Source: Minisyncoccota bacterium
GTDB taxonomy: Bacteria > Patescibacteriota > Minisyncoccia > Phycocordibacterales > CSBR16-193
Length of the DNA stretch: 64,000 nucleotides
Direction of reading: 5' to 3'
Assembly (NCBI GenBank): GCA_040905715.1
Contig: JBBDRA010000003.1
Span: forward strand, 263,142-327,141
Numbering within the stretch: the stretch's first letter is position 1; every line of letters begins with the position of its first letter. The notes beneath the pieces were generated by a model. That model was not told the DNA's origin. It was given only the letters and a program-made list of their open reading frames with translations, and ran no database searches. A program made the position numbers and the translations under genes. Positions 1,451-47,294 of this stretch are shown piece after piece.

Positions 1451-3244
1451 ATGTTCGACCCCCAGTTACTTTCCCAGCTTTTTATTTTTGCGGTCCTGGT
1501 GGCCATGATGTCGGAGTTTATAAGAGGAAAGTTACGCTACGATATAGTTTCTCTACTCGCCTTGCTTGCGATCATATTTGCAGGCTTGCTGGCTCCGGAG
1601 GAAGCGTTTGTGAGTTTTGGGCATCCCGCAATTATTATTGTTGCATCGATGTTCATCATTAGTCAGGGGCTTGTGCTCTCCGGCGTGATCGATATTATCG
1701 GTCGTAAGTTCATCTCGATCGGCCATCATCCGATCATTCAACTTTTCTTGCTTATTGTCGTGGTGGCGTTTGTTTCTGCGTTCGTTAATAATATCGGGGC
1801 GCTTGCGTTGTTTTTGCCGATCGCCATTCACGTTGCAAAGGATAATGATATCTCGCCTTCGAAGTTTCTTATACCACTCGCGTTCGCTTCGCACCTTGGA
1901 GGATTTCTTACGTTGATCGGTACGCCAAGGAATATTATTGTTTCAAGTTTTCGAGCTGACGAGTCCGGTTTTGAGCACTTCGGGATGTTTGACTTTGCCC
2001 TGGTCGGATTACCGCTAGCGATCGTTGGTATCATTTTTCTCGCCTTCATTAGCTGGCGCTTGCTCCCAAATCGACGCTGCGGATCGCCGGATAAATGCGA
2101 TCTTTTTGAAGTGAGGAACTATACAACTGAAATAAAAGCAACAGAGGACTCTGAGCTGATCGGTACATATATTAAGGATATACCGGAGCAGACCGGTCTA
2201 GCGTTTGCAATACGAGGTATACAGCGTGGTGAAAGCCACCTCCACCAATTTTCAGGTTTCGAAGTACTCCAAGAAGGGGACGTGCTTATTGTCTCGGCGG
2301 AGCCTGAGGTCCTCACTGAACTGATCGAGTCCGCAAAATTTGAGACACCACAGAGTAAGGCAAAAGAGGCAGGAGTTACGCCGGATGAGGAACAAGGAGA
2401 TGTCGAGGCAGTGGTAACACCTCGATCGGTTCTTGTCGGCAGGTCTTGGGGAAGTATACCGCTTCGTTTGCGATACGGTGTTAATCTCTTGGCGGTGGCT
2501 CGACAAGGAGCAAGGCTTTCAGTTCCGCTCGAAGAGATCACATTCCGTCAAAGTGACATTCTTTTGTTCCAAGGACGTAAGGAGAGTATTAACGACTCCC
2601 TTTCCGCCCTTGGTTGTTATCCGCTTGCTGATAGAGGGCTTTCGTTCGGCAGAAGTCGTCATGTCATCATTTCGTTATCTATTTTTGTTGTCGCTATCGC
2701 GCTCGCAACAATGTCTCTTGTGCCCGTCCATATTGCCTTTCTTGCGGCTGCGCTGGCTATGATACTTACGAATATCATGTCTACCAGACAAGCCTATGAA
2801 AGTATCGAGTGGCCGGTTCTTATTTTACTGGGTTCAATGCTGGCATTCAGCGAAGCCTTTGAATCAAGCGGTAGCGCCGGTGTGATCAGTGACTTTTTGA
2901 TAACTGCGAGTGATACAACTACTCCTCTTGTGCTCCTTGGCATCGTTTTGGTGGCAACGGTAATTGTGTCTGATTTTATTAATTCAACCACAGCAGCTGT
3001 GCTCATGGCGCCGATCGCTATTATTGTCGCGACCGGTATTGGTGCATCGATCGACCCGTTCTTGATGGCTGTTGCGATCGGGTCAGCGGCTGCATTCCTG
3101 ACGCCTGTTGGTCATGAGTCAAACACACTTGTTCTTGGTCCTGGTGGGTATAAGTTTATTGATTATGTAAAAGTTGGTTTGCCGATGGATATTATTATTG
3201 TTGTTGCATCACTTATCCTCCTGCCTATCTTTTGGCCGCTTTAG
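1451..3244 (+). CDS. SLC13/DASS-family permease with two central RCK_C (TrkA-C) domains
   Basis: 597 aa. Multi-TM halves flank a soluble ~200-aa insert with two TrkA-C-like repeats (EVRNYTTEIKATEDSELIG.. and VVTPRSVLVGRSWGSIPLRLRYGVNLLAVAR), the YfbS-like architecture. Confidence 0.65.
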   Translation: MFDPQLLSQLFIFAVLVAMMSEFIRGKLRYDIVSLLALLAIIFAGLLAPEEAFVSFGHPAIIIVASMFIISQGLVLSGVIDIIGRKFISIGHHPIIQLFLLIVVVAFVSAFVNNIGALALFLPIAIHVAKDNDISPSKFLIPLAFASHLGGFLTLIGTPRNIIVSSFRADESGFEHFGMFDFALVGLPLAIVGIIFLAFISWRLLPNRRCGSPDKCDLFEVRNYTTEIKATEDSELIGTYIKDIPEQTGLAFAIRGIQRGESHLHQFSGFEVLQEGDVLIVSAEPEVLTELIESAKFETPQSKAKEAGVTPDEEQGDVEAVVTPRSVLVGRSWGSIPLRLRYGVNLLAVARQGARLSVPLEEITFRQSDILLFQGRKESINDSLSALGCYPLADRGLSFGRSRHVIISLSIFVVAIALATMSLVPVHIAFLAAALAMILTNIMSTRQAYESIEWPVLILLGSMLAFSEAFESSGSAGVISDFLITASDTTTPLVLLGIVLVATVIVSDFINSTTAAVLMAPIAIIVATGIGASIDPFLMAVAIGSAAAFLTPVGHESNTLVLGPGGYKFIDYVKVGLPMDIIIVVASLILLPIFWPL

Positions 3245-3250
3245 AATAGT

Positions 3251-3667
3251 CTATTTCTGCGAAGTATCTTGAGGAGTACGGCACTTATTGCACTTACAGC
3301 CATGTGGTTTGATGTATTCATCAACATACGACTTGCCGTAGTCGTAGGTCAGCTCTTCGCCGGGCTGTATTTTACGCTTAGCGTAGACCTTGATCGTGTG
3401 TTTGATAACGTCGGTCTCGCAGTTCGGCCGACAGGAGTGATTAATGTAACGAGCAATGTTTTCTCGGCCGCTTCCGTCCATGGTCCACTTCGTATTGATC
3501 TCAAAGAGATACTTGTTTGCGCGTCTGTCAGCTTCGTCGTTCGTTATGATCTCGCCGGTGTATTCGATCACAAACTGTCCTTTCTCTATTACTTGATCAG
3601 CAAAAAGACCGAGTCCAGCCTGGGAGCGCTTAACAGAAACGCGTGCTGGTTCTTGTTTTCGATACAT
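3251..3667 (-). CDS. SET-domain protein-lysine N-methyltransferase (minimal SET plus post-SET Cys cluster)
   Basis: 138 aa. N-SET GLGLFA..GQFVIEYTGEII; canonical NHSCRPNC (NHSCxPN) and ELTYDY (ELxxDY) motifs; C-terminal CKCNKC post-SET-like cysteines. Confidence 0.85.
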   Translation of the reverse strand: MYRKQEPARVSVKRSQAGLGLFADQVIEKGQFVIEYTGEIITNDEADRRANKYLFEINTKWTMDGSGRENIARYINHSCRPNCETDVIKHTIKVYAKRKIQPGEELTYDYGKSYVDEYIKPHGCKCNKCRTPQDTSQK

Positions 3668-3742
3668 AGTGGAAATGCATGATACGCATTATTGCTATTC
3701 GATGCAATGTAAAAACCTTATGCTAAATGCTAAAATAGAAAA

Positions 3743-4342
3743 ATGATATCTTCTCGTGCATTTAAATATACGATCATTGGACTGCTTGTTGTTGTGAGTG
3801 TTGCTAGTTGGTATTTCACGATCTCCATTTATCAGAATAATAAGGCGGATATTATTACTGCAGTTGCTGATATTGCTCATGAACTAGCTCTACCGTTCCA
3901 TATGGCCCGAATGGCTGCGCGAGAGCCTGTTACTGAATTGCCGGTGCCGGTCTACGGGGTGGTGCTTGATCAGATCGACGACACGTGGGGTGCGGCACGT
4001 AGCGAGGGTCGGACGCACGACGGGACTGACATTTTTGCCACGCGAGGAACGCCGGTTTTCTCCGCAACTGAGGGATATGTTACTCGAACGAATATTGGTA
4101 CACGTGGTGGTATTAACGTAATGGTGGCCGGTCCGGGCGGGTTGAATTATTACTACGCACATCTAGAGCGGATCGCTGACGGTATTAGACGTGGACAGGC
4201 GGTGACCACTGATACGGTGCTTGGTTTTGTTGGTAACTCCGGCAATGCAACGAATACACCGCCGCATCTTCATTTTGCTCTGTATCCCGAACGATGGGAC
4301 GCGGTTAATCCGTATCCGTTACTCGTTGATCGCTGGGATTAG
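3743..4342 (+). CDS. M23 family (LytM-like) metallo-endopeptidase, membrane anchored
   Basis: N-terminal TM helix. M23 zinc motifs HDGTD (HxxxD) and HLHF (HxH), with GFVGNSGNAT between them. Confidence 0.8.
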   Translation: MISSRAFKYTIIGLLVVVSVASWYFTISIYQNNKADIITAVADIAHELALPFHMARMAAREPVTELPVPVYGVVLDQIDDTWGAARSEGRTHDGTDIFATRGTPVFSATEGYVTRTNIGTRGGINVMVAGPGGLNYYYAHLERIADGIRRGQAVTTDTVLGFVGNSGNATNTPPHLHFALYPERWDAVNPYPLLVDRWD

Positions 4343-5058: not shown

Positions 5059-5214
5059 GTGGGTGATCACGTGTCACGATACATATGTTTATAAAGTACT
5101 GCCAGAGTACTGCTTGTTTTCTAATTCACTTCGTTCATAAGAAAACAATGGAGCCCAACCACTTTATAAACATACGAACCGCACCACGCTTAGAGTAGGA
5201 GGAAAAGGAAAAAT

Positions 5215-13072: not shown

Positions 13073-14071
13073 ATGCAGCAGCACAGAAACGTAGTTAAAG
13101 TTGATCAGAAGCCAGCGTTCTCATTTAGTGATCGGGTGGTGAAGCTCCTTAAAAAATATGATCCGGAGAATGTGCACGGGGCACGACGACTTACCTTTGG
13201 AGGCGTCAGTGAAGGAAGGGATGTTTACAACATCACCGCACCGTTTGTATGGAACGGCAAGAAATATTTACTTGGACGAGTAGAAAGCCGTGACTCGGAG
13301 GTGGATACCGAGACGGTGCTTTTTGCAAATGAAGCAACTACAGGGGAATGGATTCGTGAGGAGGCGTTTGCATCACTTTCTCTGCAGGATCCTTTCATCG
13401 CCCAGATTCACGGCCAAGTCGTTATTGGCGGAGTGGAGGTGGCTTTCCGAGAGAAGACCCAGCGACTTACTTACCGGACGGTATTTTACCGAGGAGATAA
13501 CCCGTTTTCTGTAACTCGCTTTGCGCGTGGACCGTGGAAGATGAAGGGTGTGCGCCCGGTTGAGCTAACTGATGGAAGGATCGGTGTCTTTACACGACCG
13601 CAAGGAAGAATAGGTCGACGTGGCCGGATCGGCTTTACGATCATCGGATCACTAAATGAGCTGACTCCTCGACGACTCCTTGCTGCACCTCTACTCTCAA
13701 AGCAGTTTGCTCGCGGCGAGTGGGGCGGGGTGAATGAGGCCACGTGCATGAGCGATGGCAGAATACAAGTACTCGGTCATGTCGCCAGGTTCTCCCAAAG
13801 CGGTCTGCGACATTACTACCCGATCGCGTTTCTGTTTGACCCGTACTCAAGAGGAGTAAGTGATTTTAATATTATTGGATGTCGGAGTGACCTGCCGGCA
13901 GGGGAAACAAAGCGCGAGGATCTACATGATGTAGTGTATCCGGGCGGTATTGTTCGAGACGGGGAAGGGTCCGCGCGCCTGTATGTTGGAGTGAGTGACG
14001 CTGAGGCGGTAGAGGTGGTGATGAACGATCCGTTCACCGGATTAGAATCTCTCGTATTGAATCCAGCGTAA
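13073..14071 (+). CDS. hypothetical protein, possibly DUF1861 / GH43-like beta-propeller fold
   Basis: 332 aa soluble protein with repeated G-rich beta-strand motifs. Only a weak family recollection. Confidence 0.3.
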   Translation: MQQHRNVVKVDQKPAFSFSDRVVKLLKKYDPENVHGARRLTFGGVSEGRDVYNITAPFVWNGKKYLLGRVESRDSEVDTETVLFANEATTGEWIREEAFASLSLQDPFIAQIHGQVVIGGVEVAFREKTQRLTYRTVFYRGDNPFSVTRFARGPWKMKGVRPVELTDGRIGVFTRPQGRIGRRGRIGFTIIGSLNELTPRRLLAAPLLSKQFARGEWGGVNEATCMSDGRIQVLGHVARFSQSGLRHYYPIAFLFDPYSRGVSDFNIIGCRSDLPAGETKREDLHDVVYPGGIVRDGEGSARLYVGVSDAEAVEVVMNDPFTGLESLVLNPA

Positions 14072-14260: not shown

Positions 14261-14803
14261 TCAAACGAGCCGCTTAGCCTCGTTTGGATCGGAAAGATCG
14301 TTTGCAATAACAATCGGATCACTTTCGCCCGATTGCATTCGGTGCAACAGTTCTTCTGTTGGCGAAAGGACGCGGTCTACAACACCTGGAGGAATCCAGA
14401 ATCCAGCACGATCTATTCCGGAATCACCACAGTCCCAACGAAGACAGCCCACGAGCTGCACGGGGTCTTGGTTGTAGACCACTGCATATTCGGGTATCTC
14501 AAAGCTTTTCGTTGGCGTGTAGAGCGTAATCGGCTCAGCAGGGAAGATTGATTTGCCGCACCAGGCGCACTTGATGCAGGCGGCGGCGAGACATTTGGCA
14601 CAGTACTGCTCATGCGGTGGCTGGGTGACGTATACCCATTTACCTGTATCGGGGTCGTGAAATCGTTCCACCCGACGGCACGCTTCTTTACATTTTTTGC
14701 AAAAACATCGCTTCCCGATCATCTTTAATGTCCAGTAGGATCTCCAAAACTTGAAATGCATCTCGAACCCTTTCGTTGGAGTGTTCAGTTTTGACCGGCA
14801 CAA
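14261..14803 (-). CDS. cysteine-rich hypothetical protein (probable zinc-ribbon / metal-binding)
   Basis: CFCKKCKEAC, CAKCLAAACIKCAWCGK and GCLRWDCGD clusters. Divergent neighbour of csoR. Confidence 0.4.
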   Translation of the reverse strand: MCRSKLNTPTKGFEMHFKFWRSYWTLKMIGKRCFCKKCKEACRRVERFHDPDTGKWVYVTQPPHEQYCAKCLAAACIKCAWCGKSIFPAEPITLYTPTKSFEIPEYAVVYNQDPVQLVGCLRWDCGDSGIDRAGFWIPPGVVDRVLSPTEELLHRMQSGESDPIVIANDLSDPNEAKRLV

Positions 14804-14850: not shown

Positions 14851-14880
14851 TTGACCATATACCCCTAGGGGGTATATACT
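14851..14880 (+). promoter_or_regulatory. csoR promoter (TTGACC-N18-TATACT) with embedded perfect palindromic CsoR-type operator TATACCCC-tag-GGGGTATA (14858-14876)
   Basis: -35 TTGACC 14851-14856, -10 TATACT 14875-14880, ATG at 14887 (near-leaderless). 8-bp arms are perfect reverse complements, as in known GC-rich CsoR operators. Confidence 0.65.
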
Positions 14881-14886
14881 GGAAAC

Positions 14887-15156
14887 ATGAAACAAGATAT
14901 TAAAAAACAGCTTCTGAACCGACTTGCTCGGCTTGAGGGGCAGGTGCGCGGTCTGAAGAATATGGTTGAGAATGAAGAGTACTGTGTGGATATTATTACC
15001 CAGTCGCACGCGGTGCGGAGCTCTCTCGGCTCTTTTGAGTCGTTGATGTTGAAGAATCATTTAGAGACGCATGTTCTTGAACAAATAAAGACTGGTGAGG
15101 ACAAGAAGGCGTGCGAAGAGATCATAAAGATCTATAATCTGTCTAATAAAAAATAG
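14887..15156 (+). CDS. csoR: CsoR/RcnR-family metal-sensing transcriptional repressor
   Basis: LNRLARLEGQVRGLKNMVENEEYCVDIITQSHAV is near-identical in pattern to the CsoR signature helix. A palindromic operator overlaps its promoter. A P1B ATPase lies immediately downstream. Confidence 0.85.
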   Translation: MKQDIKKQLLNRLARLEGQVRGLKNMVENEEYCVDIITQSHAVRSSLGSFESLMLKNHLETHVLEQIKTGEDKKACEEIIKIYNLSNKK

Positions 15157-15157
15157 T

Positions 15158-17335
15158 ATGAGCCACGACTGCTGTCAGGGCAATAAACACAGTGAAGCAC
15201 CAAAGAAAGTCGCCGGTGATAGCGGGGAGATGGTTTACACCTGCCCGATGCATCCGGAGATCGAAAAAAGTGCGCCGGGAATGTGTCCGGAGTGCGGGAT
15301 GAGCTTGGTCGCAAAGACGAAAAAGGCAACGAAGCAAGTAACAAAAAAGTCCCTGGGCAAAGGAGTACACGGCAAGCATGCCGGTCACTCGACCAATGTT
15401 TTTTTGAAAAAGTTCTGGATCGCGCTTACGTTGACCGTCCCCCTGGTCCTCTACTCCGATCTCGTTGAGCTTTTTGTTGGACTTGAGATGCCGCGGTTTT
15501 TCGGTTATGAGTATGTGATACTTCTTTTGGGTACGGCGGTCTTCTTCTATGGGGGCTGGGTTTTTCTTGCCGGATCGTACCGCGAGATCCGTGGGCATAT
15601 GCCCGGGATGATGACCTTGATCGCATTGGCTATAGTGGCAGCGTACACCTGGAGTGTGTATGCAACCTTCACGGCGGATATGACGCTTTTCTGGGAGCTG
15701 GGAACTCTTATTACTATAATGCTTTTGGGGCATTGGCTGGAGATGCGCTCGGTTAAAAAAGCGCGCGGGGCATTGAAGGAGCTCTCGGCACTATTGCCTG
15801 ACACGGTGGAGGTAGAGCGTAATGGGAAGATCGAAACGATCTCTGTCGCTGAGCTTAAAAGTGGGGATGTAGTGCATTTGAAACCCGGCGGAAGAGTGCC
15901 GACTGACGGTGAAGTGGTAGAAGGTGTATCTGAGATAGACGAGTCGATCGCTACCGGCGAGTCAAAACCGGTTGCTAAAAAAGAAGGTGATGAGGTTATC
16001 GCCGGTACGATAAATGCCGATGGCTTTCTGAAGATCAAGGTAACCAATGTTGGAGAGGAGACGTTTCTGGCGAACGTCATGCGGCTGGTTGCCGAAGCTG
16101 AGTCTTCAAAGTCGCGTCTGCAGCTCCTCTCTGACAAAGCAGCGTTTGTACTGACACTCGTCGCTGTTTCTGTCGGTGCGATAACGTTCGTGGCCTGGCT
16201 TTCGCTCGGAGGTGAGGTCTCTTTTGCGGTCGCTCGCTTGGTTGCCGTGCTGGTCATTGCCTGTCCGCATGCTCTGGGATTGGCAGTACCGCTGGTTGCC
16301 TCTATCTCAACTGGAATGGCGGCCGAGAACGGCTTTGTGGTCAAGAGTCGTCTGGCGTTGGAGTCGGCTCGATCGGTGGATACGGTCCTGTTCGATAAGA
16401 CCGGCACGCTTACACACGGTGAGTTTTGGCTCGATGAGGTGTTTCCGGCGAACGGGTTCGATACTGCCGATGTTCTAAAGTTTGCCGGTTCAGTCAACAA
16501 AGGCTCGGAGCACGCTATTGCCAAAGCAGTGGTGGAAGGTGTGCGCGAGCAAGGTGTCGAGATTGTGGCCGTTACCGGTTTTGAGCGGGTGCCAGGTAAA
16601 GGGGCAAAGGGTACGGTTGATGGTGCAAAGGTGTTGATCGGAAGCGAGGCTCTTTTGGATGAGGCGGGGTTCGAGATACCTGAGGATATTACAAGCAGTA
16701 TTGATGAGGAGGCCAAGAAGGGGAAGACGGTTGTGCACGCTGTAGTTAATGGCAAATACGCTGGTGCGCTGTCTCTCTCGGACAAGGTGCGTACTGAGTC
16801 AAAGGAGGCAGTTGAAATGCTTCATAAGGAAGGTATTCGGGTGGCTATGGTTACCGGAGATTCAGAGGAGACGGCGGCGTGGGTTTCCAGCAAGCTTGGT
16901 ATAGATGAGTACTTTGCGCGGGTTCTGCCGGAGGAGAAGATAGAAAAGGTTCGCGCGCTCCAGGCGCGCGGAGAACGGGTGGCGATGGTCGGCGATGGGG
17001 TCAACGACGCGCCGGCGTTAGCGCAGGCAGATCTTGGTATTGCTATCGGTGCTGGAACCAATGTGGCCATTGAGTCGGCCGGTATTGTCTTGGTGAGGAA
17101 TGATCTGCGCGATATCGGCAAAATAATTCGCCTGTCGCGTCTAACCTGGAGAAAGATGATTCAGAACCTGTTCTGGGCGACCGGGTATAACATTGTGGCA
17201 CTACCATTGGCGGCGGGCGCTCTGGTTACCTTCGGAGTGCCGGCTATTGATCCGGCGGTTGGGGCGATCTTTATGTCAGCCAGTACGGTGATCGTTGCGT
17301 TCAACGCAGTGTTGATGAGACGGGTGAAATTATAA
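15158..17335 (+). CDS. copB: copper-translocating P1B-type ATPase, CopB-like (CPH motif) with N-terminal CPxCGM heavy-metal-binding domain
   Basis: N-terminus YTCPMHPEIEKSAPGMCPECGMSL (HMBD-type); TM CPH motif (VIACPHALG); DKTGTLT; GDGVNDAPAL; 8-TM P1B topology. Confidence 0.85.
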   Translation: MSHDCCQGNKHSEAPKKVAGDSGEMVYTCPMHPEIEKSAPGMCPECGMSLVAKTKKATKQVTKKSLGKGVHGKHAGHSTNVFLKKFWIALTLTVPLVLYSDLVELFVGLEMPRFFGYEYVILLLGTAVFFYGGWVFLAGSYREIRGHMPGMMTLIALAIVAAYTWSVYATFTADMTLFWELGTLITIMLLGHWLEMRSVKKARGALKELSALLPDTVEVERNGKIETISVAELKSGDVVHLKPGGRVPTDGEVVEGVSEIDESIATGESKPVAKKEGDEVIAGTINADGFLKIKVTNVGEETFLANVMRLVAEAESSKSRLQLLSDKAAFVLTLVAVSVGAITFVAWLSLGGEVSFAVARLVAVLVIACPHALGLAVPLVASISTGMAAENGFVVKSRLALESARSVDTVLFDKTGTLTHGEFWLDEVFPANGFDTADVLKFAGSVNKGSEHAIAKAVVEGVREQGVEIVAVTGFERVPGKGAKGTVDGAKVLIGSEALLDEAGFEIPEDITSSIDEEAKKGKTVVHAVVNGKYAGALSLSDKVRTESKEAVEMLHKEGIRVAMVTGDSEETAAWVSSKLGIDEYFARVLPEEKIEKVRALQARGERVAMVGDGVNDAPALAQADLGIAIGAGTNVAIESAGIVLVRNDLRDIGKIIRLSRLTWRKMIQNLFWATGYNIVALPLAAGALVTFGVPAIDPAVGAIFMSASTVIVAFNAVLMRRVKL

Positions 17336-17348
17336 TTAGATATAAAAT

Positions 17349-17789
17349 ATGCATAAATATAAAAAAAGTATTGGTGCGCTCGCAGGCATTCTAATGTTTG
17401 CTCCCCTGGGCGTTATGGCTCACGGAGGTCCGACGGTTCCTCACGACAGTTCAGCATCTGCGATAATGATGATGCATATGGAAGAAGAGGCTTTAGGTTC
17501 TGATCGGCACGAGGAGATGGAGGTGTTAATGGAAAAGCTTTTTGCCGGTGAGCTTAGTGAAGAAGAGTCAGTGCAACTTGAAAAGCTCTCTCGTGATCAC
17601 TCCGGAGCGTTCAGCATGATGGCAAACCGAATGCATCACCATGATGGACAGCAAGCAATGATCCCCGGAAGCTCGATGTTCTCGAGTGCTACCGGGTGGG
17701 CCGGAGTACTGATGGCTCTGGCGTGGCTGGTGTGGATCGGTGTTGGCGTAGCACTTCTGGCTTTGCTTCTTAAAAAAATAATCAAGTAA
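17349..17789 (+). CDS. Met/His-rich secreted protein with C-terminal TM anchor (putative periplasmic copper-binding protein)
   Basis: Signal peptide. MMMHMEEE and MMANRMHHHD Met/His motifs. C-terminal hydrophobic helix. Sits inside the cop cluster. Confidence 0.5.
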   Translation: MHKYKKSIGALAGILMFAPLGVMAHGGPTVPHDSSASAIMMMHMEEEALGSDRHEEMEVLMEKLFAGELSEEESVQLEKLSRDHSGAFSMMANRMHHHDGQQAMIPGSSMFSSATGWAGVLMALAWLVWIGVGVALLALLLKKIIK

Positions 17790-17792
17790 CAA

Positions 17793-18272
17793 ATGAAAAC
17801 ATCTGCCTCAATCATCGCGGTTGGTATTGGATTAGTAGTTGTGGCTTCCGTAGGCTATGCATTGCTTAGTACGCCTGTTGAAAGCTCCACGCTGCCCCGG
17901 GTCACGGTCCATAAAACTCCTCAGTGTGGTTGTTGCGAAGTATATATCTCGTATCTGAGACAGTACGGCATAGAGGTGGTGGTTAAGGATCACGAAGACC
18001 TCACTCCTCTTAAAAATTCTTTATCTATTCCATCTGAGATGTGGAGTTGCCACACCACCATGATCGGTGAATTTATTGCTGAAGGTCATCTGCCGATCGA
18101 AGCGCTTGAGAAAGGATATGAAGAGCGAAGTGAAATAGCCGGTATTGCCTTGCCGGGTATGCCAAGCGGGTCACCAGGTATGCCGGGACCGAAAGAAGAC
18201 TTCAAGATCAATTCTTTGAGTGAATCGAACGATGAAGGAGTCCGCAACTATCAGCTGTGGTTAACATTGTAA
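17793..18272 (+). CDS. DUF411 (CopG-like) metal-binding protein
   Basis: CGCCEVY, CHTTMIGEFIAEGHLP and GIALPGMPSGSPGMPG motifs match the DUF411 family found in copper-resistance loci. Confidence 0.7.
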   Translation: MKTSASIIAVGIGLVVVASVGYALLSTPVESSTLPRVTVHKTPQCGCCEVYISYLRQYGIEVVVKDHEDLTPLKNSLSIPSEMWSCHTTMIGEFIAEGHLPIEALEKGYEERSEIAGIALPGMPSGSPGMPGPKEDFKINSLSESNDEGVRNYQLWLTL

Positions 18273-18284
18273 CTGTACAAAGGT

Positions 18285-18812
18285 ATGAAGATAAAAAGAA
18301 AATATGTAGCAGGATCTGGCACTGTTGCGATTGCGTTGCTCGCTCCTCGGTTTGCGTTGGCTCACTGTCCGCTATGTACGGCAGGTGCCGGAGTGTTAGC
18401 GGTCGGTGCGTCGTATGTCGGGTTATCTACTGCCGTAGTAGGTGTGTTGATAGGCGCGTTCGCACTCGCGCTTGGGTACTGGTTGGCCGGGATGATCAAG
18501 AATCAGTACGTGTCGTATCAGTACGGGGTAATTGTCACGCTGACATTTCTTTTAACGGTCATCCCTATAATGCCGCTTATTCGGGAGTATCGCCCGGTGT
18601 ACCTCCCGTTCATTGGTGAGTACGGTACAACTTATACTCTGAATATATTTTTGGTTGGATCGATCCTAGGGGCGCTGATCGTGGCGAGCGCGCCGTACGT
18701 AAGTAAGGGTGTTACACAGATGCGAGAAGGAGCGAGGGCACCGTATCAAGGTGTTACGGTCACGATCGCTCTGCTTGTGCTCGTCTCGGTAGTAATCCAG
18801 TTCATTGTGTAG
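18285..18812 (+). CDS. hypothetical polytopic membrane protein with HCPLC motif
   Basis: Five or six predicted TM helices. N-terminal AHCPLCTAG cysteine pair. In the cop cluster. Confidence 0.45.
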   Translation: MKIKRKYVAGSGTVAIALLAPRFALAHCPLCTAGAGVLAVGASYVGLSTAVVGVLIGAFALALGYWLAGMIKNQYVSYQYGVIVTLTFLLTVIPIMPLIREYRPVYLPFIGEYGTTYTLNIFLVGSILGALIVASAPYVSKGVTQMREGARAPYQGVTVTIALLVLVSVVIQFIV

Positions 18813-18820
18813 CAGGCACT

Positions 18821-19264
18821 ATGTTTGAACTATTTATAAGTATTATCGCTTTGTTTCTCGGTGGCTTGGCGGCTAAGAGTCTTTTTCCGGGACTGTGTGC
18901 CTTGTGCTTTGCAACCGCCGGAACATGGCTTCTTGGTTTGAGCGTGTTCGTGTTTAGTCTCGAGGCATCGTTGGGGATACAAGAGATCGATCCGGTCATG
19001 TTGGCGGTGCTTATGGGCGGCAGCGCGGTGGGCTTGCTTTATTACCTTTCTGCACGACTGCCGGAGCAATACGGATTTTTCAAGCTCCCGTTCCTGCTGA
19101 CACTTTTCTGGTTGGTCTATCTCATGCTTGCACATGAGCATATGTTCGGCGCTGCTATCCTGGTTGCGGGTGTGTGGGCTGTGTTCATCGGTATGTTTTC
19201 ACTAAAGGATACCCATACTAGGCAATGGGTTACGAAGATCATTGCCTGTTGTCGGGATTGGTAG
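18821..19264 (+). CDS. hypothetical membrane protein
   Basis: 147 aa, 4-5 hydrophobic helices, directly downstream in the same strand run. Confidence 0.4.
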   Translation: MFELFISIIALFLGGLAAKSLFPGLCALCFATAGTWLLGLSVFVFSLEASLGIQEIDPVMLAVLMGGSAVGLLYYLSARLPEQYGFFKLPFLLTLFWLVYLMLAHEHMFGAAILVAGVWAVFIGMFSLKDTHTRQWVTKIIACCRDW

Positions 19265-19329
19265 CGCAATACACAGGTACATTTTAATAAGGTGGTGATA
19301 GAATTAAACTAAAGTAACAATAACGATTT

Positions 19330-19878
19330 ATGGCCTACGCAATATATAAAAATAATCCGTTCGCTGAGTTTTTATTTGCTAATACAAAGATGGCCGGCTT
19401 CTGGCTCGTGGTTCGCCTATATCTGGGCTGGCAGTGGACTGCTGCCGGGTGGGGGAAGGTGACCAGTGAGAGCTGGACCGGAGCGGAAGCCGGAAGCTCG
19501 GTCGCCGGTTTTGTAAGCGGCGCACTTGAAAAAACATCGGGGTCTCATCCCGACGTAGCCGGCTGGTATGCCTGGTTTCTTGAGAACGTTGTACTACCCA
19601 ATGCCGAGGTGTGGGGATACATGATCGCCTACGGTGAACTTCTGGTGGGCATTGCCCTGATCATCGGTCTTCTGACCGGTATTGCTGCATTCTTTGGACT
19701 GTTCATGAACCTCAATTTCATGCTTGCCGGTACGGTTAGCAGTAATCCGGTATTATTCACACTGGCGATCGGCCTGGTTTTGGCTTGGAAGGTGGCCGGG
19801 CATTGGGGTGTTGATCGATGGCTTTTACCTAAATTAGGCACGCCGTGGCAGCCGGGAGATGTATTTAAACGTTCATAA
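19330..19878 (+). CDS. DoxX-family membrane protein
   Basis: VRLYLGWQWTAAGWGKV and the downstream TM pattern resemble DoxX/DoxD small membrane proteins. Confidence 0.5.
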   Translation: MAYAIYKNNPFAEFLFANTKMAGFWLVVRLYLGWQWTAAGWGKVTSESWTGAEAGSSVAGFVSGALEKTSGSHPDVAGWYAWFLENVVLPNAEVWGYMIAYGELLVGIALIIGLLTGIAAFFGLFMNLNFMLAGTVSSNPVLFTLAIGLVLAWKVAGHWGVDRWLLPKLGTPWQPGDVFKRS

Positions 19879-20193: not shown

Positions 20194-22341
20194 GTGGGCA
20201 TAAAAATGGATCTATATAAGATATCTCAGAAGATTGCATGGGTTAGGACGGTAGCTATTATCAGTCTTCTAGCAATTTCTGGAACTCTTGTGCTTCCAGC
20301 TCACTCGATGCTAGCAGTAGACAACGCTTCAGAAAGTATTCACGTACAGTGGCCTACACAGGGCCGTTCTGATACGCTCGAGCATACATTTCTGGCGGAA
20401 GTTGAAGACATGAATACGGACAGCTACGAGCTGTACTGGTCTGTCGATGGCGGTGATCGTGTCGCTATGAGCGATCGGGATGGATTTGAACAGACTTGGA
20501 TCAATTTCAGTAGCTGGTACTGGAATGAGGACGGACCGTATGAACTACGTTTTATTGCCGTGGATGACGATGGCGATGAAATAGCTCGTACCGGACTGTC
20601 TCTCTATCGTGTTGAAGTTAATGGAAACAAAAGCAACATGGTGACCGATAGTGAGGTTAGTAGTACTAAACGAGAACCGATCGAGGTTGCTGATAGTGAT
20701 GAGGTTGTAGACAGGGAAGAGGAGGAAAGTGTAGACGATGAGAATAAGACAGAGAAAAGGGCCGAGTCAACGGACGATGAGGAAGTGAGTGAGGAAAGTG
20801 AGTTATCTGAAAATACAGATGTGAATGCTGGTGAGGATTCAGGTAGCGAATCTTCTGATGAGGAGTCAGAAGAGCTAACCAGTGAAGAGGCGAGTGCTAA
20901 CAGCGAAGAGAATAATGATGAAGAGAATGAATCACTCAGTGATCTAGAAGAGGAAAGCAATGACAACGAGTCCTCAAGTGACGACTCTGCTGACAAAAAA
21001 TCAGAAGAGTTAGATGAAGAGAGTGAAAATGATTCTGACATTTCTGAGTGGTTTACTATTACCGGTAACGTAGAAGATAGTGGTGTAGGTGATACTACCG
21101 AGGTTTCGTTTACTGTTGTGAACACCGGAGGCCCTGCAGAGGATACTATAGTTGACCTTGAGATCTTTAACGAAGAAGGCTCTCAGGTATACCAAGACTA
21201 TAAGATCGATCAGTCATTTGAAAATGATCAGGATCGAGACTATCAGTTCACATGGAAGCCTGATACCGCCGGCACATACAGTGCCTCAGTCGGTATCTTC
21301 AAGCCGTCATGGTCATCTATCTATAGCTGGCATGATGACATTGCCTCGTTCGAGATAGTTGATAACGGGTCATCGTCATCTGAAGAAAATGATGACGGTT
21401 CTGAATCAGTGGAGTCTAATGACTCAGATCCACAGGATCAGGACGACTTGTTGAACGGCGATAGTAGCGAAATCTCGATGAGCGAAAGTGACTTCTATAA
21501 TGAAGAAGGTCCTGCGGACCGACAGTACGATGAGTGGAAGGACGATCGACCGGAAGATGCTGAGTTGATCAAAAAAATCGTTGATCAGCCGATAGCCAAG
21601 TGGTTCGGTGGCTGGAACAACGATATTAAAAGCGACGTAGACGCGTATGTCTCAAAGGCACACAAGCAAGGAAAGACGCCGGTAATGGTGGCATACAATA
21701 TTCCTGATCGCGACTGTGGCTCGCACTCAGCCGGTGGATTAAGTAGCCTTTCTGAGTATGAGCAATGGATAAATGATTTTGCTGACGGTATTGATGGCCG
21801 TGATTCGATCGTTATCCTTGAGCCCGATGCTGCTGCGTTGACCAACTGTCTGGATGATAACGAACGTGAAGCACGCCTGATCGTTCTTGGTGAGGCGGCA
21901 GCAGTTCTTCGTGACCACGGAGCTAAGGCGTACATCGATGCAAGTCATGCAAACTGGCTTAGCGCTAATGATATGGCCGATCGACTGAAGAGTGCCGGTA
22001 TTGAAAAAGCAAGTGGGTTTGCATTGAATACCTCGAACTTTGTCTCTACCGAAAAGAATCTTCAGTACGGACGAGATATCTCAAAGCAGACAAACGGTGC
22101 GCATTTTGTCATTGACACGTCCCGAAACGGAAATGGTGCAGCGAGTGACAATGAGTGGTGTAATCCGGAAGGTCGCGCATTAGGTCAGAAACCGACCTTT
22201 GTCGACAACGACCCGCTCCTGGACGCATTTATTTGGACGAAGGTTCCGGGTGAGTCGGATGGTAAATGCAACGGAGGACCTGCTGCAGGTGTGTGGTGGC
22301 CAGAGTACGCACTCGGTCTTGCGGAGCGAGCTGATTGGTAA
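20194..22341 (+). CDS. secreted glycoside hydrolase family 6 (cellulase) with Ig-like N-domain and long acidic Ser/Glu/Asp-rich linker
   Basis: Signal peptide. C-terminal catalytic domain carries GH6 hallmarks: VAYNIPDRDCGS (PDRDC), VILEPDAAAL (EPDSL), YIDASHANWL (DAGHAGW), FIWTKVPGESDG. The middle ~250 aa are low-complexity acidic. Confidence 0.85.
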   Translation: MGIKMDLYKISQKIAWVRTVAIISLLAISGTLVLPAHSMLAVDNASESIHVQWPTQGRSDTLEHTFLAEVEDMNTDSYELYWSVDGGDRVAMSDRDGFEQTWINFSSWYWNEDGPYELRFIAVDDDGDEIARTGLSLYRVEVNGNKSNMVTDSEVSSTKREPIEVADSDEVVDREEEESVDDENKTEKRAESTDDEEVSEESELSENTDVNAGEDSGSESSDEESEELTSEEASANSEENNDEENESLSDLEEESNDNESSSDDSADKKSEELDEESENDSDISEWFTITGNVEDSGVGDTTEVSFTVVNTGGPAEDTIVDLEIFNEEGSQVYQDYKIDQSFENDQDRDYQFTWKPDTAGTYSASVGIFKPSWSSIYSWHDDIASFEIVDNGSSSSEENDDGSESVESNDSDPQDQDDLLNGDSSEISMSESDFYNEEGPADRQYDEWKDDRPEDAELIKKIVDQPIAKWFGGWNNDIKSDVDAYVSKAHKQGKTPVMVAYNIPDRDCGSHSAGGLSSLSEYEQWINDFADGIDGRDSIVILEPDAAALTNCLDDNEREARLIVLGEAAAVLRDHGAKAYIDASHANWLSANDMADRLKSAGIEKASGFALNTSNFVSTEKNLQYGRDISKQTNGAHFVIDTSRNGNGAASDNEWCNPEGRALGQKPTFVDNDPLLDAFIWTKVPGESDGKCNGGPAAGVWWPEYALGLAERADW

Positions 22342-46415: not shown

Positions 46416-47294
46416 ATGGATAAAAAAACATGGGTCATTATTAGCGTTGTTGCCTGTGTCGGACTCGGTCTTATTATTTTGTTTCTCCTTCTTCCCGGAG
46501 ATTCAGAGCCGGCCAAAACTGCAACGTCAACACCGGAGATAACAAGGGACGAGCCGGTGCGTAGCGTGATCGGTACATCGGTAGAAGGCCGTGAGATAGA
46601 GGCGTATACGTTTGGAAACAGTGAAAAACATGTTGCGTTTGTCGGAGGTATTCACGGTGGATATGAATGGAACAGCATTCTTCTGGCGTATCAAATGATG
46701 GATCATCTGGAGGAGTACCCCGAGGTGATACCAGATGATGTGCGTGTTACTATTATTCCATCGGCGAATCCTGACGGGCTGGCACGTGTTATGGGTACAA
46801 CAACCGGACGATTTGCTGCAGCTGATGCGCCGCCTACGGAGCAGACGACAGAAGGTCGGTTTAATGCGAATGGGGTTGACCTCAATCGGAACTTTGATTG
46901 TAACTGGGCGCCTGAGAGTAGTTGGCGTGGCGAGACTGTGAGCGCAGGTACCGAAGCGTTCTCAGAGCCGGAAGCTATTGCGATCCGCACCTTTGTTCAA
47001 AATACAGATCCTGATGCGGTGATCTTCTGGCACAGTGCGGCCGGGGCGGTTTACGGATCCGAGTGTAATGACGGAATCCTTCCGGGAACGCTCGAGATCA
47101 TGAATACGTACGCTGACGCTGCCGGCTATGCCGCAGTGCCGTCGTTCGATGCGTATCCTATTACCGGCGATGTGGAGGGCTGGCTGGCTTCTATCGGTGT
47201 TCCATCGATTACGGTTGAACTCAGTACGCATGAAGATCTGGAGTGGGAAAAGAACAAAGCCGGGGTAGAAGCGATCCTTCGAAGTGTTGAGTAA
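46416..47294 (+). CDS. M14-like zinc carboxypeptidase-like, membrane anchored (paralog 2)
   Basis: GGIHGGYEWNS, NPDGLA, GRFNANGVDLNRNFDCNW. Collinear with paralog 1 over the whole length. Confidence 0.6.
   Translation: MDKKTWVIISVVACVGLGLIILFLLLPGDSEPAKTATSTPEITRDEPVRSVIGTSVEGREIEAYTFGNSEKHVAFVGGIHGGYEWNSILLAYQMMDHLEEYPEVIPDDVRVTIIPSANPDGLARVMGTTTGRFAAADAPPTEQTTEGRFNANGVDLNRNFDCNWAPESSWRGETVSAGTEAFSEPEAIAIRTFVQNTDPDAVIFWHSAAGAVYGSECNDGILPGTLEIMNTYADAAGYAAVPSFDAYPITGDVEGWLASIGVPSITVELSTHEDLEWEKNKAGVEAILRSVE

Follow-up and report, generated by a model that had tools for sequence, protein, structure and literature searches.

Which metal does the gene island at positions 14887–19878 serve, given that its CsoR/RcnR-family repressor carries a Cys-His-His ligand set? 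A preliminary description of the island, which lies in a 64-kb stretch of DNA (the whole of the stretch analysed here, referred to as the window), considered its metal specificity not obvious. This assessment can be revised, as the operator, the second ligand shell of the sensor, the missing W-position His, CopG and a Met/His-rich protein all indicate copper. We consider it likely (probability about 0.8) that the island, from a Candidatus Paceibacterota (Patescibacteria/CPR) bacterium, is an operon for the export and handling of copper that CsoR represses and copper induces. The host is an uncultured ultra-small bacterium. The Cys-His-His metal site is that of a copper-sensor class known from earlier work, so that most of the island is ordinary, with the exception of two unnamed membrane proteins that accompany CopG.

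Island layout and predicted operator

ORF calls combined with Pfam profile matches identified seven colinear ORFs on the plus strand of 14887–19878, separated, in order, by gaps of 1, 13, 3, 12, 8 and 65 nt; the eight genes reported initially were a miscount. The gene descriptions given at that stage, with a Z-position Cys-to-His exchange in the sensor, a CPH pump and copper-type accessory genes, were correct. The gaps of 1–13 nt suggest a single transcript. The same gene set is also present in the related loci L003, L005, L007, L010 and L011. No CopZ chaperone was found in the 64-kb window, unlike in published neighbourhoods of copper-sensor clusters.

A sigma-70-like promoter is located on the plus strand at 14851–14880 (−35 TTGACC, 14851–14856; −10 TATACT, 14875–14880; 18-nt spacer) and, with 10 of 12 hexamer matches, is the best promoter-like site between 14200 and 20400. 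Its −35/−10 spacer is occupied by a predicted CsoR operator, ATATACCCC-tag-GGGGTATAT (14857–14877, unstranded), with perfect 9-nt inverted arms and a 3-nt spacer. The perfect TACCCCNNGGGGGTA occurs once in the window, at this very operator, which fits the C. glutamicum CsoR box, ATACCCCnnnGGGGTAT, in the form in which PMC5057107 quotes it. Equivalent boxes lie 8–21 nt upstream of 28 of the 36 related csoR genes. The promoter of this copper-efflux operon is thus overlapped by a GC-tract pseudo-palindrome of the ATACCCCnnnGGGGTAT type, as in classical CsoR systems.

Ligand set and metal specificity of the sensor

The csoR gene (14887–15156, plus strand) encodes an 89-residue repressor that matches PF02583 (Trns_repr_metal; E 5e-26; 91.3 bits, cutoff 22.8) and is thereby placed in the CsoR/RcnR superfamily. 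By alignment, its metal ligands are Cys33, His58 and His62 (codon CAT, 15070–15072). HMMER aligned NHLETHV of the window protein with NHLETCF of M. tuberculosis CsoR (2hh7) without a gap, with Y32/C33/H58/H62/E78 corresponding to Y35/C36/H61/C65/E81, and the x-C-H-H fingerprint is therefore real. The preliminary description, which had placed a His (ETHV) at the second Cys of the C-H-C triad and had named a canonical triad as the refuting outcome, is borne out here: the alignment yields Cys-His-His instead of the classical x-C-H-C set.

In other respects the protein resembles classical Cu(I) sensors. Tyr32 and Glu78 form the second shell of a classical Cu(I)-CsoR; among 29 close homologues, Y32, C33, H58 and E78 never vary, and at least 90% keep H62. 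The N-terminus (MKQDIKK) contains neither His nor Cys, and the clade consensus has no His within its first 40 residues, so that the W-position ligand is missing. The best matches among solved structures are Cu(I) CsoRs (2hh7, 3.5e-12; 4m1p, 3.7e-12), and the model of the copper sensor RicR gives a higher score (57.9 bits) than those of RcnR (37.8 bits) and FrmR (33.3 bits). Classical Cu(I) CsoRs (M. tuberculosis 2hh7, Geobacillus 4m1p, S. lividans 4adz, C. glutamicum, S. aureus) thus provide the best sequence matches and share with the window system the second-shell Tyr/Glu, the autoregulated csoR-ATPase arrangement and the promoter-overlapping operator consensus, but have a Cys at the Z position, where the window protein has His.

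This ligand set, initially called unusual, corresponds to a published CsoR subclass and is the norm among the relatives. The x-C-H-H subclass of the T. thermophilus CsoR type forms SSN cluster 17, which has been assigned to copper sensing (PMC8643695), and it is likewise treated as copper-sensing in PMC11672702. The window CsoR shows the features of this subclass, Cys-His-His without a conserved W-position ligand, as do 27 of its 29 close homologues; C-H-H is also found in 33 of 36 CsoRs of related loci and in 41 of the nearest 150 cluster representatives.

The type member, CsoR of T. thermophilus HB8 (TTHA1719, 3aai), has C41/H66/H70 where the window protein has C33/H58/H62. Both share the Cys followed by H-L-x-x-H-V, a Tyr preceding the Cys, a conserved Glu in the last helix and an adjoining copper P1B ATPase. 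However, the two are distant (36.8 bits, compared with 49.5 bits for M. tuberculosis CsoR); T. thermophilus CsoR has N-terminal H3, H5 and H7, which the window protein lacks, and is partnered by a CPC CopA and CopZ rather than by a CPH pump without CopZ. In a crude neighbour-joining tree of 139 short sequences, it falls just outside the 46-leaf clade around the window CsoR, which takes in 33 of 34 non-RcnR C-H-H sequences. In 51 bootstrap resamplings, it never joined the window's C-H-H clade (at least 90% C-H-H); as this clade mostly comprised very few leaves (median 3), the support is weak. Since the window CsoR and T. thermophilus CsoR lie apart in this crude tree, the properties of the latter can be carried over by analogy only. 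T. thermophilus CsoR is reported to release DNA in vitro with several metals, and PMC5057107 summarises it as coordinating Cu(I), Cu(II), Zn(II) and Cd(II). Reviewers consider it not unequivocally established that C-H-H sensors, T. thermophilus CsoR among them, are strictly specific for Cu(I), and note that a Z-position His may raise promiscuity (PMC11672702). The window sensor may retain some metal promiscuity.

Carried further, these properties would make the repressor a broad-range sensor, whose harder S-N-N site admits Cu(I)/Ag(I) as well as Cu(II), Zn, Cd and Ni in vivo, with the pump and its partners likewise acting beyond Cu(I). The sensor/pump pairings across 80 genomes (C-H-H with CPH, 26; C-H-H with CPC, 3; C-H-C with CPC, 2) fit the copper operon, and could also be taken to mean that both proteins moved towards harder ligands together. 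We nevertheless find the broad-range reading unlikely, as Cu(I) sensors have the same Tyr/Glu second shell, operator type and neighbours, and CPH pumps have been shown to be Cu(I)-specific (Purohit 2018, in the form cited in PMC7558416). The co-occurrence of C-H-H and CPH may also be plain inheritance of one operon. In addition, metalloregulators that are promiscuous in vitro are usually not so in their in vivo response.

That the X-Y-Z ligands (C-H-H) equal those of RcnR could alternatively point to a Ni(II)/Co(II) sensor. This is very improbable: the protein, starting with MKQDIKK, has neither a His3 at the W position nor the short N-terminus that the six-coordinate RcnR site requires, its residue 6 pairs with model position 8, and its RcnR score (NF011613 equivalog, 37.8 bits) stays below the cutoff of 138 bits. 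The operator is of the split G/C-tract CsoR type, and the neighbours are a copper-subfamily ATPase and CopG rather than an RcnA-type exporter. Tyr32 before the Cys is also CsoR-like; RcnR has Glu there. We regard as even less probable a sensor of a non-metal signal, be it persulfide (CstR) or aldehyde (FrmR). While the family includes such sensors (PMC8643695), and while DoxX and the two membrane proteins with Cys motifs might hint at thiol or sulfur chemistry, CstR requires two Cys (x-C-x-C), of which the window repressor has one at the sensing positions, and the N-terminal Pro required in FrmR is absent; furthermore, the entire neighbourhood is copper-related.

Returning to the copper-inducible operon, we propose the following course, in which gene identities, motifs, synteny and the position and conservation of the operator are observed, while the metal, its coordination geometry, the allosteric route and the direction of transport are inferred. 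Without copper, a CsoR oligomer on the operator in the −35/−10 spacer would block the operon and with it csoR. Rising cytoplasmic Cu(I) would be bound at the CsoR subunit interface by Cys33, His58 and His62, an S-N-N site that would replace the S-N-S site of classical CsoR, and Tyr32 and Glu78 of the second shell may link binding at His58 to the loss of DNA affinity. Derepression would then supply a CPH-type P1B ATPase, predicted to export Cu(I) across the single membrane, and putative membrane-tethered, extracytoplasmic copper handlers, i.e. the Met/His-rich protein, CopG with its CxCC/Met cluster site, and g5 and g6, the two Cys-motif membrane proteins that accompany CopG.

The pump and its copper-type partners

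The second gene (15158–17335, plus strand) encodes a CopB-type (formerly P1B-3) copper P-type ATPase of 725 residues with E1-E2_ATPase and Hydrolase Pfam domains. Like CopB/P1B-3 pumps of A. fulgidus and S. aureus, it bears CPH in TM4 (C369-P370-H371, nt 16262–16270, confirming the motif noted before), YN in TM5 (G676-Y677-N678) and MSxST in TM6 (M706-S-A-S-T710), and it matches the nucleotide-binding domain of A. fulgidus CopB (3skx) at 2.6e-70. It scores 566 bits against TIGR01511, the copper-translocating subfamily. The original label of the CPH pump as "Cu(II)-type" does not hold, as P1B-3 (CPH) pumps have been reclassified as Cu(I) transporters and merged into P1B-1 (Purohit 2018, as cited in PMC7558416). 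In S. aureus, a CPH copB is also under CsoR control.

The N-terminus differs from that of CopB/P1B-3 pumps. It contains a Cys pair (MSHDCC) and a zinc-ribbon-like HMBD (PF19335, residues 26–53; CPMHP…CPxCGM), as in L. pneumophila CopA (3rfu), the best solved match (7.8e-134); the alignment begins at residue 14 of the window ATPase and thus takes in the HMBD region. The window ATPase has no long His-rich N-terminal domain, only a short HGKHAGH (H-x-x-H-x-x-H) stretch; ATPases with His-rich N-termini are found in the relatives L001 and L007.

The Met/His-rich protein (17349–17789, plus strand; 146 residues, 15 Met, 9 His) has no Pfam match. It has a signal-peptide-like N-terminus (…VMA/HGG, the slash marking the apparent cleavage point) and a C-terminal hydrophobic anchor. 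Its earlier description as Met/His-rich stands, while "periplasmic" is imprecise for Patescibacteria; it is better called anchored and extracytoplasmic. L003 has a weakly similar counterpart (33% identity) at the corresponding place, and L013, L021 and L025 contain related ORFs; overall, conservation is poor.

At the far end of the island, a DoxX/DoxD-family membrane protein (19330–19878, plus strand; 182 residues) matches PF07681 (40.2 bits, cutoff 23.6) and PF04173 (33.6 bits, cutoff 22.7); its scores against the equivalog models TQO DoxD and HvfX are far below the cutoffs. Its attachment to the operon is loose. The gene follows a 65-nt gap that contains no CsoR box, and no terminator-like site was found on the plus strand between g6 and DoxX (19264–19330). 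DoxX follows g6 in the closest relative, L011, and a DoxX relative is present in one of 80 scanned loci, where it does not adjoin g6. Any role of DoxX, as of g5 and g6, would be conjectural.

CopG and two accompanying membrane proteins

CopG (DUF411, PF04214; 17793–18272, plus strand) has an N-terminal membrane anchor and retains C45-G-C-C48 (nt 17925–17936), SCHT, EGHLP and PGMPSGSPGMPG, all invariant in its relatives. It thus combines PF04214 with two features of the tetranuclear copper cluster described in PMC7558416, the CxCC motif and the Met ligands next to it. Its motifs align with those of P. aeruginosa CopG (6wis; E 2.4e-20), a copper-resistance protein whose tetranuclear copper cluster is bridged by Cys, and with which it shares CxCC, SCHT, EGHxP and a Met-rich PGMPxGSPGM. 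Unlike P. aeruginosa CopG, the window protein is tethered by an N-terminal hydrophobic segment, in a host presumed to have no outer membrane. Of 80 scanned loci, 73 have g5 downstream of CopG, and in about 62 g6 comes directly after g5.

The unannotated membrane protein g5 (18285–18812, plus strand; 175 residues) starts with a signal-peptide-like segment ending at A-L-A/H27, continues with H27-C-P-L-C31 (nt 18363–18377) and then has about five helices. H27, C28, P29, L30 and C31 are invariant among 556 homologues, none of which is named; g5 has no Pfam match, and a fold search with its AF2 model (pLDDT 82.7) gave no informative match. It occurs in 161 genomes. Due to the invariant, apparent A-x-A/H processing site, the mature protein would begin with His-Cys-Pro-Leu-Cys at the membrane surface; judging from these residues, its N-terminus could bind copper through His and Cys or act as a CPxC redox centre.

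The next gene, g6 (18821–19264, plus strand), encodes an unannotated membrane protein of 147 residues without a Pfam match, bearing C26-A-L-C29 and a C-terminal IAC143C144RDW. C26, C29, C143, C144 and W147 are invariant in its homologues. In a low-confidence AF2 model (pLDDT 64), predicted helix 2 spans residues 27–48, and C26-A-L-C29 is located where it begins.

The novelty of the island sits in the CopG-g5-g6 triad and not in the sensor. Tentatively, and at somewhat below even odds, we suggest that the triad is an undescribed extracytoplasmic copper-handling or redox module. Going further, and more speculatively, the parallel Cys-to-His changes of sensor (C-H-H) and pump (CPH) may mark a co-adapted pair.

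CopG, the "A-x-A/HCPLC" protein and the "CxxC…CC" protein form a conserved, unannotated triad. It is distributed over Patescibacteria (CPR), DPANN-type archaea (MAGs labelled as small archaea such as Woesearchaeota, Nanoarchaeota and similar) and some MAGs labelled Gammaproteobacteria, and in Patescibacteria the CsoR and the pump linked to it are usually of the C-H-H and CPH types.

Composition and conservation of the island

The segment at 14887–19878 contains seven plus-strand ORFs, one fewer than the eight genes counted in the preliminary description, separated by intergenic gaps of 1, 13, 3, 12, 8 and 65 nt. Going by Pfam and NCBIfam matches where there are any, they encode, in order, an 89-residue repressor of the CsoR/RcnR family (PF02583), a P1B heavy-metal ATPase that belongs to the copper subfamily and carries an HMBD domain (PF19335) at its N-terminus, a Met/His-rich protein of 146 residues (15 Met and 9 His), a DUF411 protein (CopG), two membrane proteins referred to here as g5 (18285–18812) and g6 (18821–19264), and a DoxX/DoxD protein. 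Identical copies of CsoR, g5 and g6 are present in a metagenome-assembled genome of Candidatus Paceibacterota (Patescibacteria/CPR). The Met/His-rich protein, g5 and g6 had no family matches in Pfam (at E-values up to 10) or NCBIfam. While published neighborhoods of Cu-sensing CsoR clusters usually contain CopZ, no HMA/CopZ-type ORF (a CopZ-like chaperone with an M-x-C-x-x-C motif) was found in the whole 64-kb window. In these reduced genomes the operon is devoid of a CopZ chaperone.

Among related loci of other genomes, the order csoR, CPH ATPase, small secreted or anchored protein, DUF411, g5 and g6 is kept in L003 and L005, and the closest relative (L011) shows the island order together with a downstream DoxX gene and an upstream PIF1-like helicase gene. 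Two loci contain rearranged versions of the island (L007 and L010), and two others have only csoR and a His-rich CPH pump (L001 and L002). The G+C content is slightly raised over the ATPase gene (0.527 vs about 0.47). Horizontal acquisition of the island was also considered; the PIF1-like gene that flanks the island is syntenic in L011, which lends this reading no support.

Ligand site of the sensor

In an ungapped HMMER alignment, residues Y32, C33, H58, H62 and E78 of the window CsoR lie opposite Y35, C36, H61, C65 and E81 of Mycobacterium tuberculosis CsoR (2hh7), with the stretch "NHLETHV" facing "NHLETCF". Since the second Cys of the triad (the Z position) is a His and the N-terminal His/Cys is absent, the W-X-Y-Z ligand fingerprint is x-C-H-H, exactly as read in the preliminary description. 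That this ligand set is unusual, as had also been proposed, is contradicted by the same C-H-H set in Thermus thermophilus CsoR (3aai; C41/H66/H70 within "AHLKDHV"), in a published sequence cluster and in most close relatives. The cluster, SSN cluster 17 of Fakhoury et al., is grouped with bona fide copper sensors (PMC8643695); a 2024 review uses the same classing, with the caution that an unequivocal evaluation of Cu(I) specificity is lacking and that the His may make such sensors more promiscuous (PMC11672702).

C-H-H sites are present in 27 of 29 close homologues of the window CsoR, in 33 of the 36 CsoRs adjoining relatives of the island operon and in 41 of the 150 nearest cluster representatives (clustering at 50% identity), among them most of the top 30. 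Classical C-H-C sequences rank directly after the C-H-H ones, and the Tyr/Glu second shell is common to both. In a crude neighbor-joining tree computed without the Z column, a single 46-leaf clade containing the window CsoR holds 33 of 34 C-H-H sequences; its other 13 leaves are almost all C-H-C, and T. thermophilus CsoR is placed one node outside it, alongside M. tuberculosis CsoR. The tree suggests that the Z residue toggles between Cys and His among copper-type CsoRs, and that the window CsoR clade may be separate from the Thermus cluster. As the clades are small, the bootstrap is a weak measure, and it is therefore not claimed that C-H-H arose here independently of the Thermus group. At 2118–4088 of another related locus (L012), P0028, one of the few C-H-C members near the clade, is followed by a 565-residue fusion protein with HMA, DsbD_2 and Cupredoxin_1 domains rather than by an ATPase.

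The window sensor is a known, less studied C-H-H variety of CsoR, and its metal site is predicted to be a three-coordinate S-N-N one. In Patescibacteria, C-H-H is the standard CsoR, almost always accompanied by a pump of the CPH type and by a canonical CsoR box, and these proteins constitute a large natural sample set for asking whether the Cys-to-His exchange alters metal selectivity.

Copper as the probable cognate metal

A candidate CsoR operator with perfect 9-nt arms, ATATACCCC-tag-GGGGTATAT, is located at 14857–14877, where it takes up exactly the interval between TTGACC and TATACT, which together make the region's best promoter-like site. The perfect TACCCCNNGGGGGTA occurs a single time in 64 kb. 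The operator agrees with the C. glutamicum CsoR box ATACCCCnnnGGGGTAT (PMC5057107) and resembles S. aureus CsoR sites (PMC10233261), and comparable boxes, ending 8–21 nt upstream of the start codon, are found at 28 of 36 related csoR genes. A putative second box at 46716 was discarded, as it contains two mismatches and is at chance level.

The Tyr and Glu residues through which Cu(I) binding is coupled to DNA release are invariant in the 29 close homologues, and the RcnR-specific N-terminal His is absent from the window protein, which scores far under the cutoffs of the RcnR and FrmR equivalog models and lower with these than with the copper RicR model. The ATPase bears CPH, YN and MSxST motifs. 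Its CPH motif had been taken as the mark of a Cu(II)-type pump, a premise that is outdated because the members of the former P1B-3 group, at one time termed Cu(II) pumps, proved to be Cu(I) transporters and now form part of P1B-1 (Purohit 2018, cited in PMC7558416). The best solved match to the window ATPase is the Cu(I) exporter CopA of L. pneumophila, in an alignment that spans the HMBD motif region, and S. aureus provides an established precedent for a CPH-type copB under CsoR control. Finally, the DUF411 protein aligns to P. aeruginosa CopG (6wis; E-value 2.4e-20) and keeps its CxCC, SCHT, EGHxP and PGMPxGSPGM motifs.

The operator, the second shell and missing RcnR features, the pump, CopG and the S. 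aureus precedent all point to copper, and we consider it probable (about 0.8) that the island is an operon for copper export and handling that is derepressed by Cu(I). The initial interpretation is only partly supported: apart from the gene count, its observations stand, but its conclusion that the metal specificity is not obvious does not, given several independent features that indicate copper. As originally posed, the finding is of small weight, since the island can be recognised as a copper export operon under CsoR control and its C-H-H site is a documented variant. Strict Cu(I) specificity of this variety is a genuine question, albeit one already recognised.

A conserved vicinal Cys pair lies within the first six residues of the CPH ATPases of the window, L001, L005 and L007, ahead of the HMBD or His-rich segment (MSHDCC at 15158–15175 of the window; MSHCC, MDCC and MDCC in the others). 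At 5112–7067 of L011, gene calling splits the pump into an 83-residue HMBD piece and a 535-residue ATPase, suggesting a frameshift, pseudogene or assembly error.

Membrane proteins linked to CopG

The more original material of the island is the CopG-g5-g6 triad rather than the sensor. A profile scan with g5, taking one genome per species, retrieved 161 genomes labelled Patescibacteria, DPANN-type archaea (Woesearchaeota, Nanoarchaeota and Pacearchaeota) or Gammaproteobacteria. Of the best 80 loci, 73 have a DUF411 ORF just ahead of g5 and about 62 have g6 just behind it; 47 contain a P1B ATPase within 7 kb, and csoR is present in 35. Sensor and pump are paired as C-H-H/CPH in 26 of these loci, C-H-H/CPC in three, C-H-C/CPC in two and C-H-C/CPH in none, counts that are not corrected for shared ancestry, so that the covariation of the sensor Z residue with the TM4 motif of the pump may reflect operon inheritance only. 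A relative of the window DoxX occurs in one of the 80 loci, where it does not adjoin g6, making the case for DoxX as a member of the functional unit weak.

All 556 g5 homologues are annotated as hypothetical and lack Pfam domains, and H27-C-P-L-C31 is invariant among g5 sequences. We inspected 43 sequences from the best 80 loci (all 16 labelled Gammaproteobacteria, all 15 of DPANN type and 12 of the others), and in every one HCPLCT directly follows a signal-peptide-like segment, in which basic residues precede a hydrophobic stretch, position −1 holds a small residue (nearly always Ala) and a Pro usually stands near −6. As this segment ends directly before the motif, the mature N-terminus of g5 is predicted to be His-Cys-Pro-Leu-Cys. 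Predicted cleavage would expose an N-terminal His in both the Met/His-rich protein (…VMA|HGG, 17349–17423) and g5 (…ALA|HCPLC, 18285–18365), presumably reminiscent of the N-terminal-His copper sites of CopC/YcnI-type proteins. The AF2 model of g5 is confident (pLDDT 82.7), and structure comparison with it gave no informative neighbors. In g6, an invariant CxxC opens a predicted helix and the C-terminus bears CC-x-x-W; the g6 model (pLDDT 64) was too poor for a structure search. A word-index search returned seven g6 homologues, and profile searches of the related loci many more.

The tight linkage of g5 and g6 to CopG suggests that they cooperate with it, either by accepting or donating copper or in redox reactions. 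In at least 161 species-level genomes, two unannotated Cys-motif membrane proteins nearly always come after CopG, which provides a concrete lead to its missing partners; a literature search returned nothing on DUF411 in connection with Patescibacteria, or on CPR in connection with CsoR.

Just upstream of the island, a DUF1861 protein (PF08950, E-value 8e-102) is encoded at 13073–14071. A 180-residue Cys-rich ORF on the minus strand (14261–14803), divergent from the operon promoter, has several CxxC pairs, no Pfam or NCBIfam matches and a terminator-like hairpin after it (14234–14209). Beyond the island, the ORF at 20194–22341 encodes a cellulase-type domain of glycoside hydrolase family 6, which is noteworthy for a Patescibacteria genome of reduced size; ahead of this domain lie a very long acidic linker rich in Ser, Asp and Glu and a weak Wzt_C-like domain.
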